DNA of 62,874 nucleotides, counting the filler, from Neolecta irregularis DAH-3 (lineage: Eukaryota): assembly GCA_001929475.1 (NCBI GenBank). It is 7 parts of 7 records of this genome, joined end to end, with 100 filler letters (N's around TTAATTAATTAA, not from the genome) between each part and the next. Parts side by side here need not be neighbours in the genome. Positions count along the whole stretch, not along the records: positions 8,741 to 28,303 come from LXFE01000595.1; 6 more parts are not named here. One strand, written 5' to 3'. How positions within the stretch are numbered: position 1 is the stretch's first letter; each line of letters starts with the position of its first letter. Shown piece by piece: positions 8,641 to 61,949 of the stretch. The position numbers were made by a program, and so were the translations under genes. The notes below the pieces were generated by a model. The model had not been told where the DNA came from. It did no database searches and saw only the letters and a program-made list of their open reading frames with translations.

Positions 8641-8740
8641 NNNNNNNNNNNNNNNNNNNNNNNNNNNNNNNNNNNNNNNNNNNNTTAATTAATTAANNNN
8701 NNNNNNNNNNNNNNNNNNNNNNNNNNNNNNNNNNNNNNNN
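8641..8740. other. Artificial contig spacer
   Basis: N-run + TTAATTAATTAA (stops in all six frames) + N-run. Confidence 0.97.
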
Positions 8741-9862: not shown

Positions 9863-11712
9863 TAATCTGCGTCTCCAAAATTCCAAAATTTTCAAAAAAA
9901 CCCTTGAACAGTTTAACAGCCAATTCGATATCTCGTGAGCCTAAAAATATAAGCAAAAGAAAAGTAAAGGGTTATACCGCCAGTCTCTCGAATTGAATGC
10001 ATACTTAATTGAGGATTTCCAATATCTAATGTGCGCATGCCCATTTTGGCGGATAACATGGGTCCGATAGTACTTCCGGACGGTGAATCGTTTTTCGCGA
10101 CAAATACTAGAGTAATAAGCCCGTGATGAAGATATCAGTACGCTGGAGAGGAACTTGCACTTTTTTACACACTTGTTGCTTGAAATGTCAGCAACCGATT
10201 TGAACTAGAAATAATTACGACAAGAACTATCCCAGGTGCATTTGTAGCATATCGGGCATTTGCATTGATTTTAATTACTGGTCCTTTATTCAATTGGGGT
10301 TTATGACTTGATTCCTGAAATATCAAATAAATTATGATAACAAGACGGACATGTTTAGATGCATAATTTGGATGAACGGCGTGTGCCTGATCAGCCGAAA
10401 TCAAAAAGCTTTTTCGCAAGGTCTCTTCAAAAGCAGTTGAAGAAGGCTGATCTTGTCCGAGTTTAATAGTAGACAAACGCCTTATACTTTATATTTAGTC
10501 AGGTAAGAAATAGGGTTGTATACATTGACGGGAGAAAGTCGGAATTGGCTCCTTGAGCAGTCGTGCTTCCTATTTCTTCGTCGTCAAAGAGACATGCAAG
10601 ACGAATTGTTTCGTCGTTGGGAGAATCATCAGATTCAACTAGACCTCGCGTTGCACAAAAACTGCTGACCTTGATGTGAGAATAGTCGAGGGTGTATAAT
10701 ACAAGGTTATCCTGTCGTGCTGCAAATACGAATTCATCGTAGAGTCCTCCTAAACAAGCAGGTTGAGTATCATACAACAGTAACTCAAAATCGTGAATAT
10801 CGTGGGCTTGTCAGTTAGTATATGCCGTACAGCCCTCAACCTTTTACTCCAAGATTAGAAGCAAGCAGCTTGATAAAATCGCTATCATGGCGATCAGATA
10901 AACACGTTGATAACTGCTCCAATTTATCAGCCGTTTCTTCTTTCGGTTTCCCGTTGAGTGTTTCTTGAACAAGACCCAAGATCGGCGTAAGATGAGTTTC
11001 TGTGTTGAATTCAAATTTGGCGTTGACATCGCGATCCAAGTGGATTGCGATCGTTGGAATTCGCAAGACTAGTAAATTAGAAAACGAACAAAAAAGAAGT
11101 GTTACGAGGTTTATCAATCTTGATGAGTTCATGCTTAAAAGTATCTCCGGATTGAACCATAACTCGTCCAGCTATACTAAGATCTCTATCGAACCATGAA
11201 TGCCTAAACTTGAATAGCATCCTTGGTTTCTGCCATACCATATGCCGCCACCGTATGTTTCAACGCCTACTTGAAGGTAATTCTCAGATATCTTTTTCGA
11301 TACCGGTTTCAGTCTGCACGTCAACTCGGTCACCATGAAATAGAAACCTGAGAGCAGGAGAATCGGTATGAGCTCCAACTATACTCATTGCATTCCCAGG
11401 CTTCCAATTATTACCTGTTAGGTTAATTTGGATTTACAGGATACATGCCCACTGTGAAAGCAATTAGACTTGATCCGTTACGCTTGACATAATATTTCCC
11501 TCCCGTTTCGATTTTCCCAGCCCATGCATCCCGTTCTTTAAGCCCGGTATAGCCTTTCAACATTGCTTTAGCGTTCGCCACAGCATGATATGGAGTCGGC
11601 GAGGCATTAACATAAGCACTAATTCAATTATCAAATTTGATTTTATACTGCATAATTACAGAAAGTCGGTTGCGTATGATCGAGCGCTTTCAGATAAAAA
11701 AGTACAAGACAT
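9852..11712 (-). CDS. APE4: Aspartyl aminopeptidase (peptidase M18), about 13 exons
   Basis: [82 protein letters not shown] and QLSMHSIRE. Confidence 0.95.
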
Positions 11713-19463: not shown

Positions 19464-21480
19464 TCACCGCAAAATGCATCTTGGTAGTCAAGTACTACTA
19501 TAAAATGGAAACTACCTGGGACACCTCCAATGGCTTGGATCTTGTGGAAAAGATTGACAAGATTTGTGATAATATGGGTTCTCGCATTCCTTGTAATAAA
19601 ACATCAACCTGATGCAGAGAAATTACCATGTTTTTGCAGAATATAATATCTCCGCGCTTCCAAGGAAGACTACAACATGCCATCACCCAGTGATCATTAG
19701 CGTCTCTACAAAATCAATCAACAATCTCACTAAAAATTACTTGACGACTTCTAGTGCCGTTTGATATGGCTCGAGTAGCTGACCAATCTGAAATACTGTT
19801 TCAGGGTCGATTCGTCTATGGTCGACGAGATTCATCACCATCATAAGAATATCAACGTGAAACATGTGTGATGTGATATGTTCCCTTTTCTCCTGGCAAA
19901 ACCGAATCAAACATTCTGCCAAGGCCTGATTACTTCGTGGACTGCTAGTTAGTAATTGAATCGATTTGTTTTACTTTATCAATGAAATAAAAGATGTCCA
20001 TAATTTCATAAAATCTTTCTCGGATTGAATGACATCCGAGAAATCGTCAAGTTCCTAGACATAAAAGCAAATACCAAACAGACAAATACCTCGTTTTGCT
20101 TCCGAATATACCAGTTCATATCAATCTCATCTTCGCTCTCCTCGACTTGTTCACCCGGTCTGAATTTCCTTCGCGTACGTGAATCGTAAAAGCTTCCCAC
20201 AAGAGGCACAGTTTTGATTCTTCGTTTCTTTGGAATTATCGCGTTTGATACACGATTAGACATCCGTAGAATTTTGTGTTTTTTGGTGAAGCTGAAAACA
20301 CGAGGATCTGGCGCATTTTGACTTGCCCGTTTTTCCATATATTCGCCATCGATATCAACGTGAATATCAATTATATCACGAGATTTCTGGGAAATGAGTA
20401 ATAGGTATCTTGGTCAAGTTTGCTTACAGTCCACAGTGCGCGTGCCTTGAAGTAATCGTGACATTGATTGAAGTGTTTCTCCATTATCTCGACGGTAGCA
20501 TAGTCTCGTCCTACACAAACTGGACAACGAAACCCTTGTACTTGTTGAATTTTATCTTGGCCAAAATGCCATCTGACCCACGATGTGGTCAGCGAGGAAG
20601 GAGGAGATAGGGCTTTTCGAGGTTGAGAGTGTTTAATTTCAAGTTGAAGTCTTTTAGACCAAGAGGCGGTTATTGTGACATATAATTTCGGGGACACCCA
20701 TTCCTCTCCCTCGTTAAGGAGTACAGAACATCGCTGGAATCGATTTGCTTGAAGATCTACAAGTGTAGAGTTTTGCTGATCGTCAAGTCTTGTGATGATC
20801 TGTTTTAGCTCAAAGTCTCTAGTTACTTCTTCACAAAAGAGCTCTGCAGGACGTTTCACAACGCTCAATTCAGGCGAATCAACGTTGATTATCAGCCATT
20901 CATGGCCTTCGAGCGGGAAAAAGTAAATATATGTGGCATAATCTAGAAATGGAGTAAACTGAGGAGGTTGTTGAAAGCGTGAGTACTGCAAGTCTACCAT
21001 GGAGAGTTTGAAGGGTCCTCCATGCAATTGGACATGCAATGTATTGTCATCGAGGGGAAGGAACGTTGCAATTCGTTGTTGACGTATAAGCGGTACCGTG
21101 GTTTGACCCCGCGAACAATACACGACGAGGACGCATTTGCAGCGGATGGATCTTTGTTTTTGTGTAGTCGAGATTGGTATATGAAATTCGGTGATGTTGA
21201 TGGTCAGAATTGGCGGATCGGAGATGAGAGCATTTACGAGAGCGCGTGGATATAATTCGTCGAGCCGAATCTTCCTACGCGTTTTATCGACATTGCCGAT
21301 AAAAGAGATATTTCGCTCGAGAAAGACTGGGTGGACTTGTCAATTTGCGGTTGATAAAAGGGCGAATATCTGTCTGTAGCGCTGAAGAAGCGCATAGAGA
21401 TTGATATTTCCTGGAATTTCAGGTATTTATCCAGAAAATACTATACCCGTCCACTCTCGAGCAAAATCATCGCCCTGCAT
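19464..21480 (-). CDS. SUZ12: Polycomb PRC2 subunit SUZ12-like (C2H2 finger + VEFS-box) with C-terminal PHD-like finger, about 8 exons
   Basis: N-terminal LYALLQR...PVFLERN; C2H2 FRCPVC..MEKHFNQCH; VEFS-box FYDSRT...ESEDEID...LDDFSDVIQSEKDFMKLW; C-terminal CC...FCKNMECENPYYHKSC...WRCPRC. Confidence 0.85.
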
Positions 21481-28303: not shown

Positions 28304-28403
28304 NNNNNNNNNNNNNNNNNNNNNNNNNNNNNNNNNNNNNNNNNNNNTTAATTAATTAANNNNNNNNNNNNNNNNNNNNNNNNNNNNNNNNNNNNNNNNN
28401 NNN
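28304..28403. other. Artificial contig spacer
   Basis: N-TTAATTAATTAA-N. Confidence 0.97.
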
Positions 28404-43525: not shown

Positions 43526-43625
43526 NNNNNNNNNNNNNNNNNNNNNNNNNNNNNNNNNNNNNNNNNNNNTTAATTAATTAANNNNNNNNNNNNNNNNNNN
43601 NNNNNNNNNNNNNNNNNNNNNNNNN
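43526..43625. other. Artificial contig spacer
   Basis: N-TTAATTAATTAA-N. Confidence 0.97.
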
Positions 43626-56033: not shown

Positions 56034-56133
56034 NNNNNNNNNNNNNNNNNNNNNNNNNNNNNNNNNNNNNNNNNNNNTTAATTAATTAANNNNNNNNNNN
56101 NNNNNNNNNNNNNNNNNNNNNNNNNNNNNNNNN
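56034..56133. other. Artificial contig spacer
   Basis: N-TTAATTAATTAA-N. Confidence 0.97.
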
Positions 56134-56299: not shown

Positions 56300-59200
56300 A
56301 TGGACCAAGCCGATATTCCAGAACATGATTGTGAAGAAAGCAACGATGACGAAGAACAAGTTATTTGTGCCATGGACTATGGTAAAAATTACATTGGAAC
56401 GAGTTTTTTTAAAGGTGCGTGTGTATGTAATGGTAGCCATTTGACTTGAAGATAACCGGTTATATTTGATGGAAGATATGCTTGAAAACCCGCCGTTTGA
56501 TATACNNNNNNNNNNTGACTTGAAGATAACCGGTTATATTTGATGGAAGATATGCTTGAAAACCCGCCGTTTGATATACTCCATCAACGTATGAGGGAAA
56601 ATATATCAAGTTGACTAACCACGCCTAGTAAAATTTTATATTTCTCCCAATGTTGTTTTGGTTCCGACTCGAATTGATGAGATGTTTCAGGAGAAATTGG
56701 AGTCGTTTGGTTTAGGTATTTGTCATTGTTTTGTTTTTTAATGAAAAAGATGATTCTACGAGGGGATATCGAATTGATAATCGGCCGTCGAATGAATTTT
56801 CGTATACGCAGGGGTATAATAAACTTGTTGGACTTGATCTTGAAGAACATACCGGTCCAGCTATTTTTCTTCAGTGCGGTGATGAACACGATGTTACGAG
56901 GAACAGGAAAGATGCATTGTTGCGATTAGCAGGATGGATCAACACTGAGAGTCGACTTGCGGTATATACCTCCACAGCGCAAGAGTTGAAGCACAGGTCG
57001 GATGTGCTGGTGCTGTTCTCTCGTTTATCCAACGAAGAAGATTGACTAGTCAATTTAATACCGACGGCACAGGTTTGAGAATTGCTGCAGTAGAAATGTT
57101 TTCGATGAAAGATGTAATGTACGTCAACGGTGATACACTTTGGTAAATTCCGTTTATAATTACGGATTATGCTTATTTTCCTCTTGTGCATTGCAGATAT
57201 TCGAGGATGAATCACACCCGAATTTCCATATGCAGGGTCGGAGTAAAGAAGGGTTATCATTATTTGGTATATCCTGATTCTGCACATAGTGATTATCAGG
57301 AATAATGAATTCGACAAAAACGACGCAGGGATGTTTTATGTTGAAGCAATGGTTCACGAGACCTTCGCTTTCACTTGACATTCTGTCGAAACGGTATGAT
57401 AGTATATCGTGCTTTCTTCGGCCAGACAATGCCCATGTACGTTTTACATTATTAGCTGACTCTGACTGGAAAAGGTTTCAGCTTCATTGAGCACCTTTTT
57501 GAAAAAAGTAAAGAACATACCCAAACTCTTAACTGCACTTCAACGGGGCAAAGGAGGAGCTAATCGAAGTGGAGAATGGCAGGGCTTATTGCAGGTACCC
57601 TTTCCTATTTTTTCTGCACAGCTGATGCCAGTTTTCTTTTAATGCTCTCAAAATCCGCTCTGAAGTAGCAGACCTCGTTGATTCTGGGCATCTCTCCATT
57701 GTCAACAAAATCATTACCGCCTTTGATACTCTGCAGTTTGAAGATATCTCGACATTAATCGGTGATGTCGTTGATTTTGAAGAATCCGCCCAACAAAAGA
57801 GAGTTGTCGTGAAGCGAGGGATTGATGGGGAATTGGATGAAATGAAGAGGACGTACGACGGTTTAGAAAGCATGCTCTCGGAAGCAGTTCGTAATCTGGC
57901 GGTTACAATCCCTTCAACAGTTGCGTCTAGTCTAAACGGTATGAACTAGAAGATACCGATTGACCAGTGTCGCAGTCATATATTTCCCACAAATGGGGTA
58001 TCTCATTGTGATGCCCTCGCGAGACGGTAAAGTAGTTTACCAGGCGGACGATTGGGAGCTTCAGTTTAGCACTGCAATGTGCTCTTATTTCAAGAGTCCC
58101 GAAATGAGAGGTATTCTTTAATCGATATTTGGGGCTCAGAAAAGATTTGGATGACTATCTTGGCGATATTTACGGAATGATTGTGGATCGAGAGATTGAG
58201 GTGATACATCAGCTTCAACTCCGGGTTTTAGAATACACTGCGTTTCTTACTTTATGTTCCGAGATTTGTGCAGAGTTGGATTGGTAGGGTGGATAACGTG
58301 TTGGCTAATTGCAGTCTCCTCAGCTTGACGGATGCAGCTCGTCGGGGGAAGTATTCTCGGCCAACGATGACTGAGAAGAATATCTTGCGAATCACAAAAG
58401 GGCGTCATCCACTTCAAGAGCTGTGTGTTGCGACTTTTGTAGAGAATGATACAGCGATAGATGGAGGAAGAGGGATTGATGGAGGGATTGATGGAGGGAT
58501 TGATGGAGGGATTGATGGAGGGATTGATGGAGGACGAGAGATTGATGGAGGGATTGAAGAGACCGAGGACGATATTTACGGCAGCATTCTCTTACTCACC
58601 GGCGCAAACAATAGCGGAAAAAGCGTCTATCTGAAACAAGTAGCTCTAATCGTGTACATGGCGCACATTGGCAGGTATCCTCTTACGCTACACCACTTAC
58701 AAAGTTATGTACCAGCATCGAACGCAATAATCGGAGTAACCGATAAAATATTCACAAGAATCCAAACAAGAGAATCAGTTTCAAAAGTAGTTATTTTTTC
58801 TAATCTGGCTAATTAGAGTAGCAAGTCAGTGCATTTATGATTGACTTGGAACAAATATCGATCGCCTTGCGAAATGCGACTAGAAGGAGTCTTTTAATAG
58901 TTGATGAATTTGCAAAAGGGACGAATGGATTTGATGGAGCTGGATTATTTTGTGGGTTGATTGATCATTTTATATGGTTGCAAGAGGATCGGCCTAAAGT
59001 TGTTGCGTGCACTCATTTTCACGGTACGCTATCAAGGGAGAGATTGCTGATATATTAGAGGTATTTGAACATGGGTATTTGAAAGAGGTGTATCCGTTAA
59101 TGTTTGGGTATATGGAGATTATGATTGATTCAGATGTGGATATTGCGAGTCAGGTTACGTATCTTTATCGGTATGTCACTCAATAGAGTTGTTGGAAGCT

Positions 59201-59630: not shown

Positions 59631-59730
59631 NNNNNNNNNNNNNNNNNNNNNNNNNNNNNNNNNNNNNNNNNNNNTTAATTAATTAANNNNNNNNNNNNNN
59701 NNNNNNNNNNNNNNNNNNNNNNNNNNNNNN
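59631..59730. other. Artificial contig spacer
   Basis: N-TTAATTAATTAA-N. Confidence 0.97.
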
Positions 59731-60593
59731 TTCACTTTTTGATTTCATGGAATCGATGGGGTTGGAAGAGACCGTTTGACCCGTTGCGATGACTCGTTCA
59801 CCCGGTTTGGCATTAGACGGTGGTCGAAGTAATTCAACCGCAGCACCTGCATCACCAATTTTCTTTGAGCCACAAAGCAACATTCCCTCACTCCACACAC
59901 CTCGTAATTTGCGTTTGGGCATATTTGCAACGACTATACATTTTTGACCGATGAGGGATTCGGGGGTGGGAAAGAAGGGACGAAGACCGCTTACTATCGT
60001 CCGATCATTCAAGGTTACACAAGAAAGTTTGACTTTTTGAATGTATAATCGTTCGGCGGTTGGATGCAGCTCGCATGAAGTGATTTCGCCTACCTATACG
60101 TTCAAACTTGTATTCCAAGATACGATTCCTACCAATAAATGGAATCTTGTAAACGGATGGTCAAGCGGGAGTTCACCGGTACCGGTACCGGGTGGCGAAG
60201 ATGAAAATGCCGGCGCAAAAATATCGTCATTAATCATAATTTTGATATTCTGCAAAACTTGGTCTAAGATGTCAGTCTGGAAAAGGAGAGAGGGTATATG
60301 CCTGCCGAAGGACGGGTGTGACTGCTAAATGTGCTCAAGAGCATTTGTTGGACGTAACCGCCATTTGGATTCTGCGAAGCATATGATGAAGCGTCGTAAT
60401 TGTTTCCAAAGGAAGCAGCTGTGATTCGAGAAAGAGGCAAAGGGGTGGTATTATTTGCCGTCAAACTTTTCTCGGGAGGAGAAAAAGTTAATGGTCGCTG
60501 TAATTGGGCGTCTTGGATACGCAGAGACGAGAGACGACGATGGATTGCACGACTAGCCGAGCGGGCTTGCCTGGCCACTGGTGGGTTCACCAT
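59731..60593 (-). CDS. tRNA-binding (EMAP-II/Arc1-like OB) domain protein, 3' end truncated
   Basis: VGEITSCELHPTAERLY...RTIVSGL...VVANMPKRKLRGVWSEGMLLC...VELLRPP; GC-AG intron 60264-60301. Confidence 0.8.
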
Positions 60594-61178: not shown

Positions 61179-61255
61179 NNNNNNNNNNCAGCGGGAGTTC
61201 ACCGGTACCGGTACCGGGTGGCGAAGATGAAAATGCCGGCGCAAAAATATCGTCA

Positions 61256-61354
61256 NNNNNNNNNNNNNNNNNNNNNNNNNNNNNNNNNNNNNNNNNNNNT
61301 TAATTAATTAANNNNNNNNNNNNNNNNNNNNNNNNNNNNNNNNNNNNNNNNNNN
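61256..61354. other. Artificial contig spacer
   Basis: N-TTAATTAATTAA-N. Confidence 0.97.
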
Positions 61355-61448
61355 NTGCTAACATAAAATGATTTCTATCTGGCCATTTCTTTCATTGGTG
61401 AAGTATGCTGCACATACAAAGTTCATGTCGTATCATCCTGATCTTGTG

Positions 61449-61949
61449 TCACATGATACGACAAATCTTACGAGTGTAACTTTGAGCAAATGGCAATCAA
61501 TTCACAGTTGAACAACCAACCAACGTATTTAAACGAAACGAGCACTATCGGAATCAGAATTTAAAGGCAAAACTAATGGCCTGCAAACAAACTCAATACA
61601 AGAAAATCAAAAGGGCACCTTTGAAGAAGCATCACACGGAGGAAACTACCAAACCCCCATACAACCTAACAGCCTGCCAGAGCATTCTCCAGGTGGGTGG
61701 TTGGATCTCATGGTGAAGGCGGGAGGCATAAAAATCCGGCCTGAGAGTCCCCACCCACCAGAGAGGCTCCGGCGGGCGCACAGTTCAGATATTTCCGGCA
61801 GGCGGCAGGTATACTAATCCTCCCACAGTGTTGTGGATGGACCATGGACTTAATCCAGTCCATTAATAGTCCATGGATAAAGTCCATGGACTGGACTATG
61901 AATAAAGCCCGGCCCATGGTCCATGGGCCTAATGGGTCGTATCATGTGA
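61449..61949. mobile_element. Candidate non-autonomous TIR element with 14-bp perfect TIRs, containing a TCCATGG-rich repeat (61826-61931)
   Basis: TCACATGATACGAC (61449-61462) and GTCGTATCATGTGA (61936-61949). Confidence 0.5.

Follow-up and report, generated by a model that had tools for sequence, protein, structure and literature searches.

A probable AT-AC intron in the SUZ12 gene of the ascomycete Neolecta irregularis

How can a SUZ12 protein be read from a gene whose coding frame is broken by an in-frame stop, when the sequence ahead of that stop offers no GT at which an intron could begin? We consider this question for the SUZ12 locus of Neolecta irregularis DAH-3, which lies on the minus strand of a window of 62,874 nt (the whole stretch of DNA that was analysed, filler included, and to which all positions refer). 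The initial annotation had proposed that the gene needs an intron with a non-GT donor; we likewise find a stop lodged between two coding pieces, best resolved by a short intron that opens with ATATTC and does not look like a U12 donor. Our proposal, made from the DNA sequence and held with about even confidence, is that positions 21369-21331 are a probable AT-AC intron of SUZ12 that would be removed by the U2-type spliceosome.

A SUZ12 gene with an interrupted frame

The identification of this gene as a SUZ12 homologue stands on firm ground: its product contains a VEFS box (PF09733, E 9.7e-17, 61.6 bits against a Pfam cut-off of 23), and its PDB matches include Chaetomium and human SUZ12 chains (14 distinct sequences at E <=0.01). 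The zinc domain Zn_SUZ12 (PF23320) is matched weakly, with an E-value of 5.7e-4 and 20 bits that fall under the Pfam cut-off of 28, and an Atlas search places the protein piece closest to SUZ12/EMF2 clusters (0.94). A minus-strand open frame of 322 residues (21339-20374) is furthermore 99% identical to one public protein, the single match among 530 candidates, which is deposited as 'Polycomb protein Su(z)12 [Neolecta irregularis DAH-3]' (384 aa; P0001 hereafter). This public model starts at an internal Met (MVDLQ...) and accounts for no more than the final 60% of the open frame.

On the minus strand the gene can be modelled as follows. Exon 1 (21447-21480) begins with the ATG at 21480, three codons upstream of which lies an in-frame stop, and ends in ACGG at phase 1, as set by frame continuity. 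Intron 1 (21411-21446; 36 nt) has GT-AG ends (GTATAG...CTGAAATTCCAG) and is called both from a reading of the sequence and from its internal-signal score, which is 12.4 in the 66-set model described below, where intron 1 is itself a seed, and 7.4 when it is held out. Exon 2 (21370-21410; 41 nt) encodes (G)NINLYALLQRYRQ in an open frame in phase with exon 1 and ends in CAG; the proposed AT-AC intron 2 (21331-21369; 39 nt) follows with its ATATTC donor, holds the in-frame TGA and ends in GTCCAC. Exon 3 (20428-21330), which includes the weak Zn_SUZ12 match, would under the AT-AC model open with the Pro codon of PVFLERNISF, and from model residue 136 onward it is identical to P0001. Eight residues separate the exon-2 Tyr from this Pro in the AT-AC product.

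Further downstream, the GT-AG introns 3 (20387-20427; 41 nt), 4 (20055-20089; 35 nt) and 5 (19942-19974; 33 nt, with TACTAAC) match the public protein exactly. Between and after them, exon 4 (20090-20386) is identical to P0001, exon 5 (19975-20054) carries part of the VEFS box by its Pfam match, and exon 6 (19737-19941) closes with the stop TAA at 19739-19737, as read from the sequence. Once 21369-21331 is removed, the whole model becomes an open frame of 519 codons whose residues 136-519 are identical to P0001; P0001 therefore lacks 135 N-terminal residues.

What separates exon 2 from the long exon is short and can be described completely. Minus-strand translation confirms that both lie in one frame, interrupted by the TGA at 21342-21340: from 21408 this frame reads NINLYALLQRYRQ, then IFALLSTAN, the stop, and then QVHPVFLERNISF. 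The reported lack of a GT downstream of the intron 1 acceptor and ahead of the stop also holds: GT does not occur once in 21410-21340 (71 bases); the same interval contains GC at 21393, 21391, 21382, 21380, 21363 and 21348, and GA at 21410, 21374, 21370 and 21341. The spacer reads on the minus strand, just as first reported, CAG/ATATTC...AAATTGACAAGTCCAC/CCA (slashes mark the intron ends), and the frame is indeed reopened by removal of either 39 nt (21369-21331, AT-AC) or 33 nt (21369-21337, AT-AA). The description of GTATTC as a locally used donor is only weakly borne out, as GTATTC starts one of the 66 candidate introns of the local set and GTATT four of them. Were base 21369 in truth a G, use of the AG acceptors ending at 21336 and 21327 would remove 34 and 43 nt, and neither removal would keep the frame, so that a single base-call error at this position rescues no canonical intron. 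Selenocysteine, the use of TGA as a sense codon and translational bypass were also considered for 21342-21340, and dropped.

Candidate introns across the stop

We enumerated all 24-66-nt removals that overlap the stop and yield an open frame, 617 in all, among which are no GT-AG pairs, four GC-AG pairs and one AT-AC pair. The removals were ranked by a score that ignores the terminal dinucleotides and draws on donor and acceptor context, on the best YTRAY branch motif together with its distance from the 3' end, and on length. Training used 66 ORF-junction candidates from the Pfam-supported genes of the window, which are inferred rather than RNA-verified introns, and the set is contaminated: candidates 22767-22730, 22656-22616 and 22463-22424, for example, lie on the strand opposite a Pfam-supported deoxyhypusine synthase gene. 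These local candidates are mostly 33-41 nt long, start with GTA in 40 of 66 cases and, in 45 of 66, place the branch A at a distance of 6-12 nt from the 3' end; their median score is 8.4. A second model was built from 14 seeds with a fixed branch motif, the SUZ12 introns being held out.

In the 66-set model the AT-AC removal, with AT at 21369-21368 and AC at 21332-21331, ranks first of the 617 with a score of 13.6, a value reached by two of the 66 training introns and by about 2.5e-5 of roughly 200,000 random pairs spaced 30-45 nt; the other four SUZ12 introns score 9.6-12.4 there, all four being seeds of that model. The 14-seed model ranks it seventh with a score of 9.7, above the four held-out SUZ12 GT-AG introns (5.3-9.5), a score that 447 of 98,530 random pairs reach; the six options placed higher (TA-CC, AC-CA, AC-CC, AG-CC, TT-CC and AC-GT) have ends of no known class. 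A putative branch motif, TTGAC, puts the branch A at 21340, 9 nt before the AT-AC 3' end and inside the local 6-12 range, and a length of 39 nt is among the two most frequent in the local set. Apart from position +1, the donor, branch site and length of the candidate thus fit the inferred local U2-type introns, as its scores in both models reflect.

We consider this signal evidence good, not overwhelming, given the move from rank 1 to rank 7 between the models and the high scores that chance can produce. Two further AT..AC pairs, each examined as a possible second intron of this type and rejected, illustrate how high internal scores also arise by chance: the pair at 11291-11253 (score 12.7) is plainly coding sequence of an M18 aminopeptidase, and the pair at 61789-61826 (score 13.6) lies in no recognisable gene. 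Folding of 21369-21331 gave no RNA structure joining its ends (MFE -3.2 kcal/mol, z +1.37).

The initial annotation had leaned towards the shorter, 33-nt AT-AA version of the intron, and here our results depart from it: a non-GT intron survives as the best reading, with the 39-nt AT-AC form favoured. Removal of 21369-21337 restores the frame from the same good donor context and would keep VH before the Pro, for a Tyr-Pro spacing of 10 residues. The initial annotation gave Y-x10-P as the spacing in the SUZ12/EMF2 N-terminal motif, and 10 residues between these positions are probably typical of animal and plant SUZ12 proteins, which would favour the 33-nt AT-AA form over the 39-nt AT-AC form. 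The splice signals, however, point the other way, with the AT-AA removal at rank 11 (score 9.0) in the 66-set model and rank 15 (8.0) in the 14-seed model, both of 617, against ranks 1 and 7 for AT-AC. It scores lower because TTGAC would then be placed 3 nt before the 3' end; the other branch candidates have poor scores. The extra Q, V and H, moreover, do not improve the agreement with the human peptide discussed below. Table 2 of PMC1557818 lists AT-AA ends for U12-type introns alone, where they make up 8 of the 66 non-canonical U12 cases, and the Dikarya are reported in PMC10639083 to be without the minor system. On balance we think it quite unlikely that the 33-nt form is the one removed.

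A different donor, slightly upstream at 21374, would give a GA-AG intron, 21374-21336, which is also 39 nt long, restores the frame and would join ...QRY through a split Ile codon to HPVFLERN, in a product of the same length as that of the AT-AC intron. Its acceptor, TTGACAAG/, is similar to the end of the local intron 10840-10807 (CTGACAAG/). The remaining signals speak against it, with rank 33 (score 6.9) in the 66-set model and rank 124 (2.9) in the 14-seed model, a donor, GACAGA, that fits poorly, and a branch A just 4 nt from the end, a distance of 3-4 nt being found in four of the 66 local candidates. Under a strict filter, furthermore, every GA-AG candidate in this window (three of three) overlaps a GT-AG alternative, and we regard use of this GA donor as unlikely. 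A TA-AG removal from 21368 to 21336 (33 nt) stands at rank 54 with a score of 5.5 in the 66-set model.

GC-AG introns are a further alternative. All four options restore the frame, and GCAAAT at 21348 resembles the GC form of a GTAAAT donor; in the 66-set model, however, 21380-21336 (45 nt) ranks 130, 21380-21327 (54 nt) 83, 21348-21316 (33 nt) 492 and 21363-21316 (48 nt) 617 of 617, and the first, second and third of these stand at 117, 118 and 403 in the 14-seed model. The introns from 21348 and 21363 have no branch motif and would cost the protein PVFLE, the best-conserved part of the human-peptide match, and the donor at 21380 reads GCTACA. We therefore hold use of a GC-AG intron here to be very unlikely. 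Across the six GC-AG and GA-AG frame-restoring pairs that were checked, ranks run from 33 to 617 of 617, and every pair has either a poor donor or no well-placed branch motif.

Exon 2 might also be left out of the mRNA, with the GT donor of exon 1 (21446) joined to the AAG ending at 21336 (an intron of 111 nt) or to the CAG ending at 21327 (120 nt). Such splicing would use ordinary GT-AG ends and stay in frame, with both frames open and MQGDDFAREWT followed by (HP)VFLERN. Yet introns of 111 or 120 nt are far beyond the local range, in which the largest candidate measures 62 nt (introns of up to 65 nt were searched for), and the donor would have to bypass a strong branch site and acceptor only 36 nt away (score 12.4) so as to discard an exon 2 that is itself open and in phase. 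Skipping of exon 2 consequently seems to us distinctly improbable. The AT-AC intron 21369-21331 remains our preferred reading, and the weight that is left over after all the alternatives named in this report is spread among solutions that we do not list.

Coding evidence upstream of the public model

Indications of where coding resumes also come from the protein itself. The human SUZ12 peptide 105-121 is described as a ligand of the RBBP4 side pocket (bioRxiv 10.1101/303537), and an overlapping tryptic SUZ12 peptide, NLIAPIFLHR, is printed in 10.1101/2023.04.30.538846. The best ungapped alignment of the 105-121 peptide to the Neolecta open frame falls on residues 1-17, the first after the TGA, with a BLOSUM62 score of 29 that is reached by 38 of 20,000 shuffles, and at the sequence level the exon 3 opening PVFLERNISF resembles this RBBP4-binding epitope. 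As the alignment begins right after the TGA, we take this stretch to be coding and place the resumption of coding at the Pro codon 21330 or shortly upstream of it; the AT-AC intron ends precisely ahead of this codon. Adding up the BLOSUM62 values by hand shows that the Q, V and H that may precede this Pro leave the score unchanged, and the human peptide therefore does not decide between removal of 33 and of 39 nt.

This alignment also bears on whether the transcript is spliced across the stop at all. Without splicing, the TGA would reflect low-level read-through, an error of the assembly, or a decayed N-terminus with translation starting at the internal Met. The public model does begin at that Met, and UGA followed by C-A-A is a leaky context, which counts in favour of read-through. 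Several features speak against these accounts: the frame stays open through the 135 codons ahead of the P0001 start Met, at its very beginning it matches the RBBP4-binding peptide significantly, exons 1 and 2 with their good 36-nt intron lie in phase directly upstream, and an intron-like element with matching A...C ends covers the stop exactly. To the absence of splicing, in these three forms taken together, we assign a small probability.

Searches for further relatives returned little besides the species' own protein. Homologous-protein searches for SUZ12 relatives gave one match among 530 candidates, none among 1559 and one among 80, each match being the species' own model; a full HMMER search gave three, namely the same model and two proteins that are unrelated by Pfam (mucin WxxW, Calx-beta). 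A metagenome protein scan for SUZ12 relatives produced 151 pattern matches with none confirmed, and an exact 26-mer scan returned no matches and thus no transcript contig of SUZ12. For the N-terminal part, a PDB search with the read-through protein yielded one irrelevant match (E 1.2) and one with the 40 N-terminal residues yielded none, two N-terminal pieces matched no Pfam family at E up to 10, and the first 135 residues of the model had no usable match in the Atlas. A single-sequence AlphaFold2 model of the N-terminus reached a mean pLDDT of 33 and is unusable.

If the AT-AC model is correct, the public Neolecta SUZ12 model is without 135 N-terminal residues that include the RBBP4-binding epitope, a point of relevance to PRC2 in early-diverging Ascomycota.

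Splicing of the candidate and known AT-AC introns

Under our preferred reading, the donor would be recognised by its context, exon CAG followed by intron A-T-A-T-T-C, that is, a local GTAT-type donor with A in place of G at +1. Branch formation would take place at the A of TTGAC (21340), and the second splicing step would use the C nine bases downstream of the branch A; C may be usable as the last base because an intron that starts with A tolerates it there, through the first-last interaction described in PMC1557818. Exon 2 (...RYRQ) would thereby be joined to the Pro codon that opens PVFLERNISF, producing the 519-residue SUZ12. Such an intron would probably represent a new case within the known U2-type AT-AC class.

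It is also possible to read the same 39 nt as a degenerate, miniaturised U12-type AT-AC intron, which would make Neolecta, alone among known Dikarya, a species that retains a working minor spliceosome. The AT-AC ends, the ATAT start and a branch motif 9 nt from the 3' end all agree with such an intron. U12 introns are, on the other hand, typically well above 39 nt in length, and short branch-to-end distances are found in all the local introns. As the initial annotation had noted, the donor is unlike the U12 consensus: by hand count, ATATTCGC matches ATATCCTT, the consensus given in PMC5029451, at five of eight positions. An Rfam search of the window gave no match to any family, U11, U12, U4atac and U6atac included; the window is the extent of that search. 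Surveys of Ascomycota describe no convincing minor introns or snRNAs (PMC10639083, PMC2396436), and the Dikarya as a whole are reported to be without minor introns (PMC10639083). Our assignment of 21369-21331 to the U2 type follows from the poor donor match and from the lack of minor introns in these surveys, and we consider a U12-type intron at this site highly improbable.

Our literature search found no description of Neolecta introns, and the genome paper (PMC5309816) contains none of the terms 'intron', 'splice', 'RNA-seq' and 'transcriptome'. AT-AC introns of the U2 type have been documented elsewhere, albeit sparsely: they number 24 among 608,562 U2-type introns, with human SCN4A/SCN5A and TAF2 as examples, and hypothesised cases in fungal xylanase genes are mentioned in the same source (Sheth et al. 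2006, PMC1557818). Among annotated fungal introns, AT-AC ends account for 0.019% (PMC7072748, Table 1). The pairing of first and last base has an experimental background, in that, in yeast as in human, a G-to-C change at the final intron base rescues a G-to-A change at +1 (PMC1557818), a first-last nucleotide suppression that is traced in yeast to Parker and Siliciano 1993 (as cited in PMC1557818 and PMC5029451). An engineered AT-AC intron is likewise spliced in yeast, and a natural one is described in S. cerevisiae RPL30 (Gould et al. 2016, PMC5029451).

Confirmation by RNA would make the SUZ12 intron a natural case in which the major spliceosome of an ascomycete removes an AT-AC intron as an obligatory step. 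What is known of the first-last nucleotide rule comes largely from introns engineered in yeast and from a few animal genes. If true, it would also bear on the extent to which the tiny introns of Neolecta are defined by branch site and length, as opposed to terminal dinucleotides.

How, then, does the candidate compare with the AT-AC introns already known? With U12-type AT-AC introns it shares the terminal dinucleotides and a branch site near the 3' end, and it differs from them in a donor that departs from the consensus (5/8) and in belonging to a lineage reported to be without the machinery (PMC10639083). With the human U2-type AT-AC introns it has in common the AT-AC ends and a donor that is otherwise of the host's U2 type; it is, however, just 39 nt long, comes from an ascomycete with minimal splice signals and is predicted from DNA. 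Its donor, ATATTC, also differs from the strong ATAAGT of the metazoan U2-type AT-AC introns (PMC5029451). Yeast RPL30 likewise comes from an ascomycete, one that splices AT-AC without a minor spliceosome and in which A at +1 needs C as the last base, according to the sources cited above. There, however, the AT-AC intron is described as a nested minor isoform (~1-2%) of unclear mechanism, whereas the intron of Neolecta SUZ12 would be obligatory for the full-length protein.

Other high-scoring AT..AC pairs

Within the M18 aminopeptidase gene stretch (11204-11470, minus strand), which carries two short GT-AG introns of 34 nt (11347-11314) and 35 nt (11238-11204), an AT..AC pair at 11291-11253 (minus strand) received a high intron-like score. 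This pair was rejected as an intron, as it is M18 aminopeptidase coding sequence; that it is coding despite its score urges caution in calling introns from signals alone. On the plus strand, a further pair at 61789-61826 (CAG|ATATTT...TACTAAT...CCCAC|) equals the candidate SUZ12 AT-AC intron in internal score, as given by the local intron model without the terminal dinucleotides, and no recognisable gene was found around it in that stretch.

Repeats and N runs

The AT..AC scan also returned a 33-base stretch in two identical minus-strand copies about 1 kb apart (61218-61250 and 60192-60224), whose sequence identity suggests a local repeat. The N runs of the window follow a regular layout and represent masked sequence or gaps: paired 44-N runs with 12 bases between them occupy six places, at the filler joins between parts (8641-8740, 28304-28403, 43526-43625, 56034-56133, 59631-59730 and 61256-61355), and two more runs hold 10 N each (56506-56515 and 61179-61188).

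The two ends of SUZ12

A 35-nt minus-strand element at 19706-19740 has good GT-AG intron signals (GTAATT...TTGATTGATTTTGTAG), and its first base is the last base ahead of the SUZ12 stop codon, TAA at 19739-19737. Splicing here, if real, would remove the stop and lengthen the frame by 68 codons through an ORF at 19498-19713 (minus strand), for which a Pfam search gave no match. The element possibly provides an alternative SUZ12 C-terminus, or is possibly a chance match.

At the other end (region 20935-21480, minus strand), an internal Met serves as the start of the public Su(z)12 model P0001 (384 aa), which lacks 135 N-terminal residues of the proposed SUZ12 model, among them the RBBP4-binding epitope, which resembles the human SUZ12 105-121 peptide.
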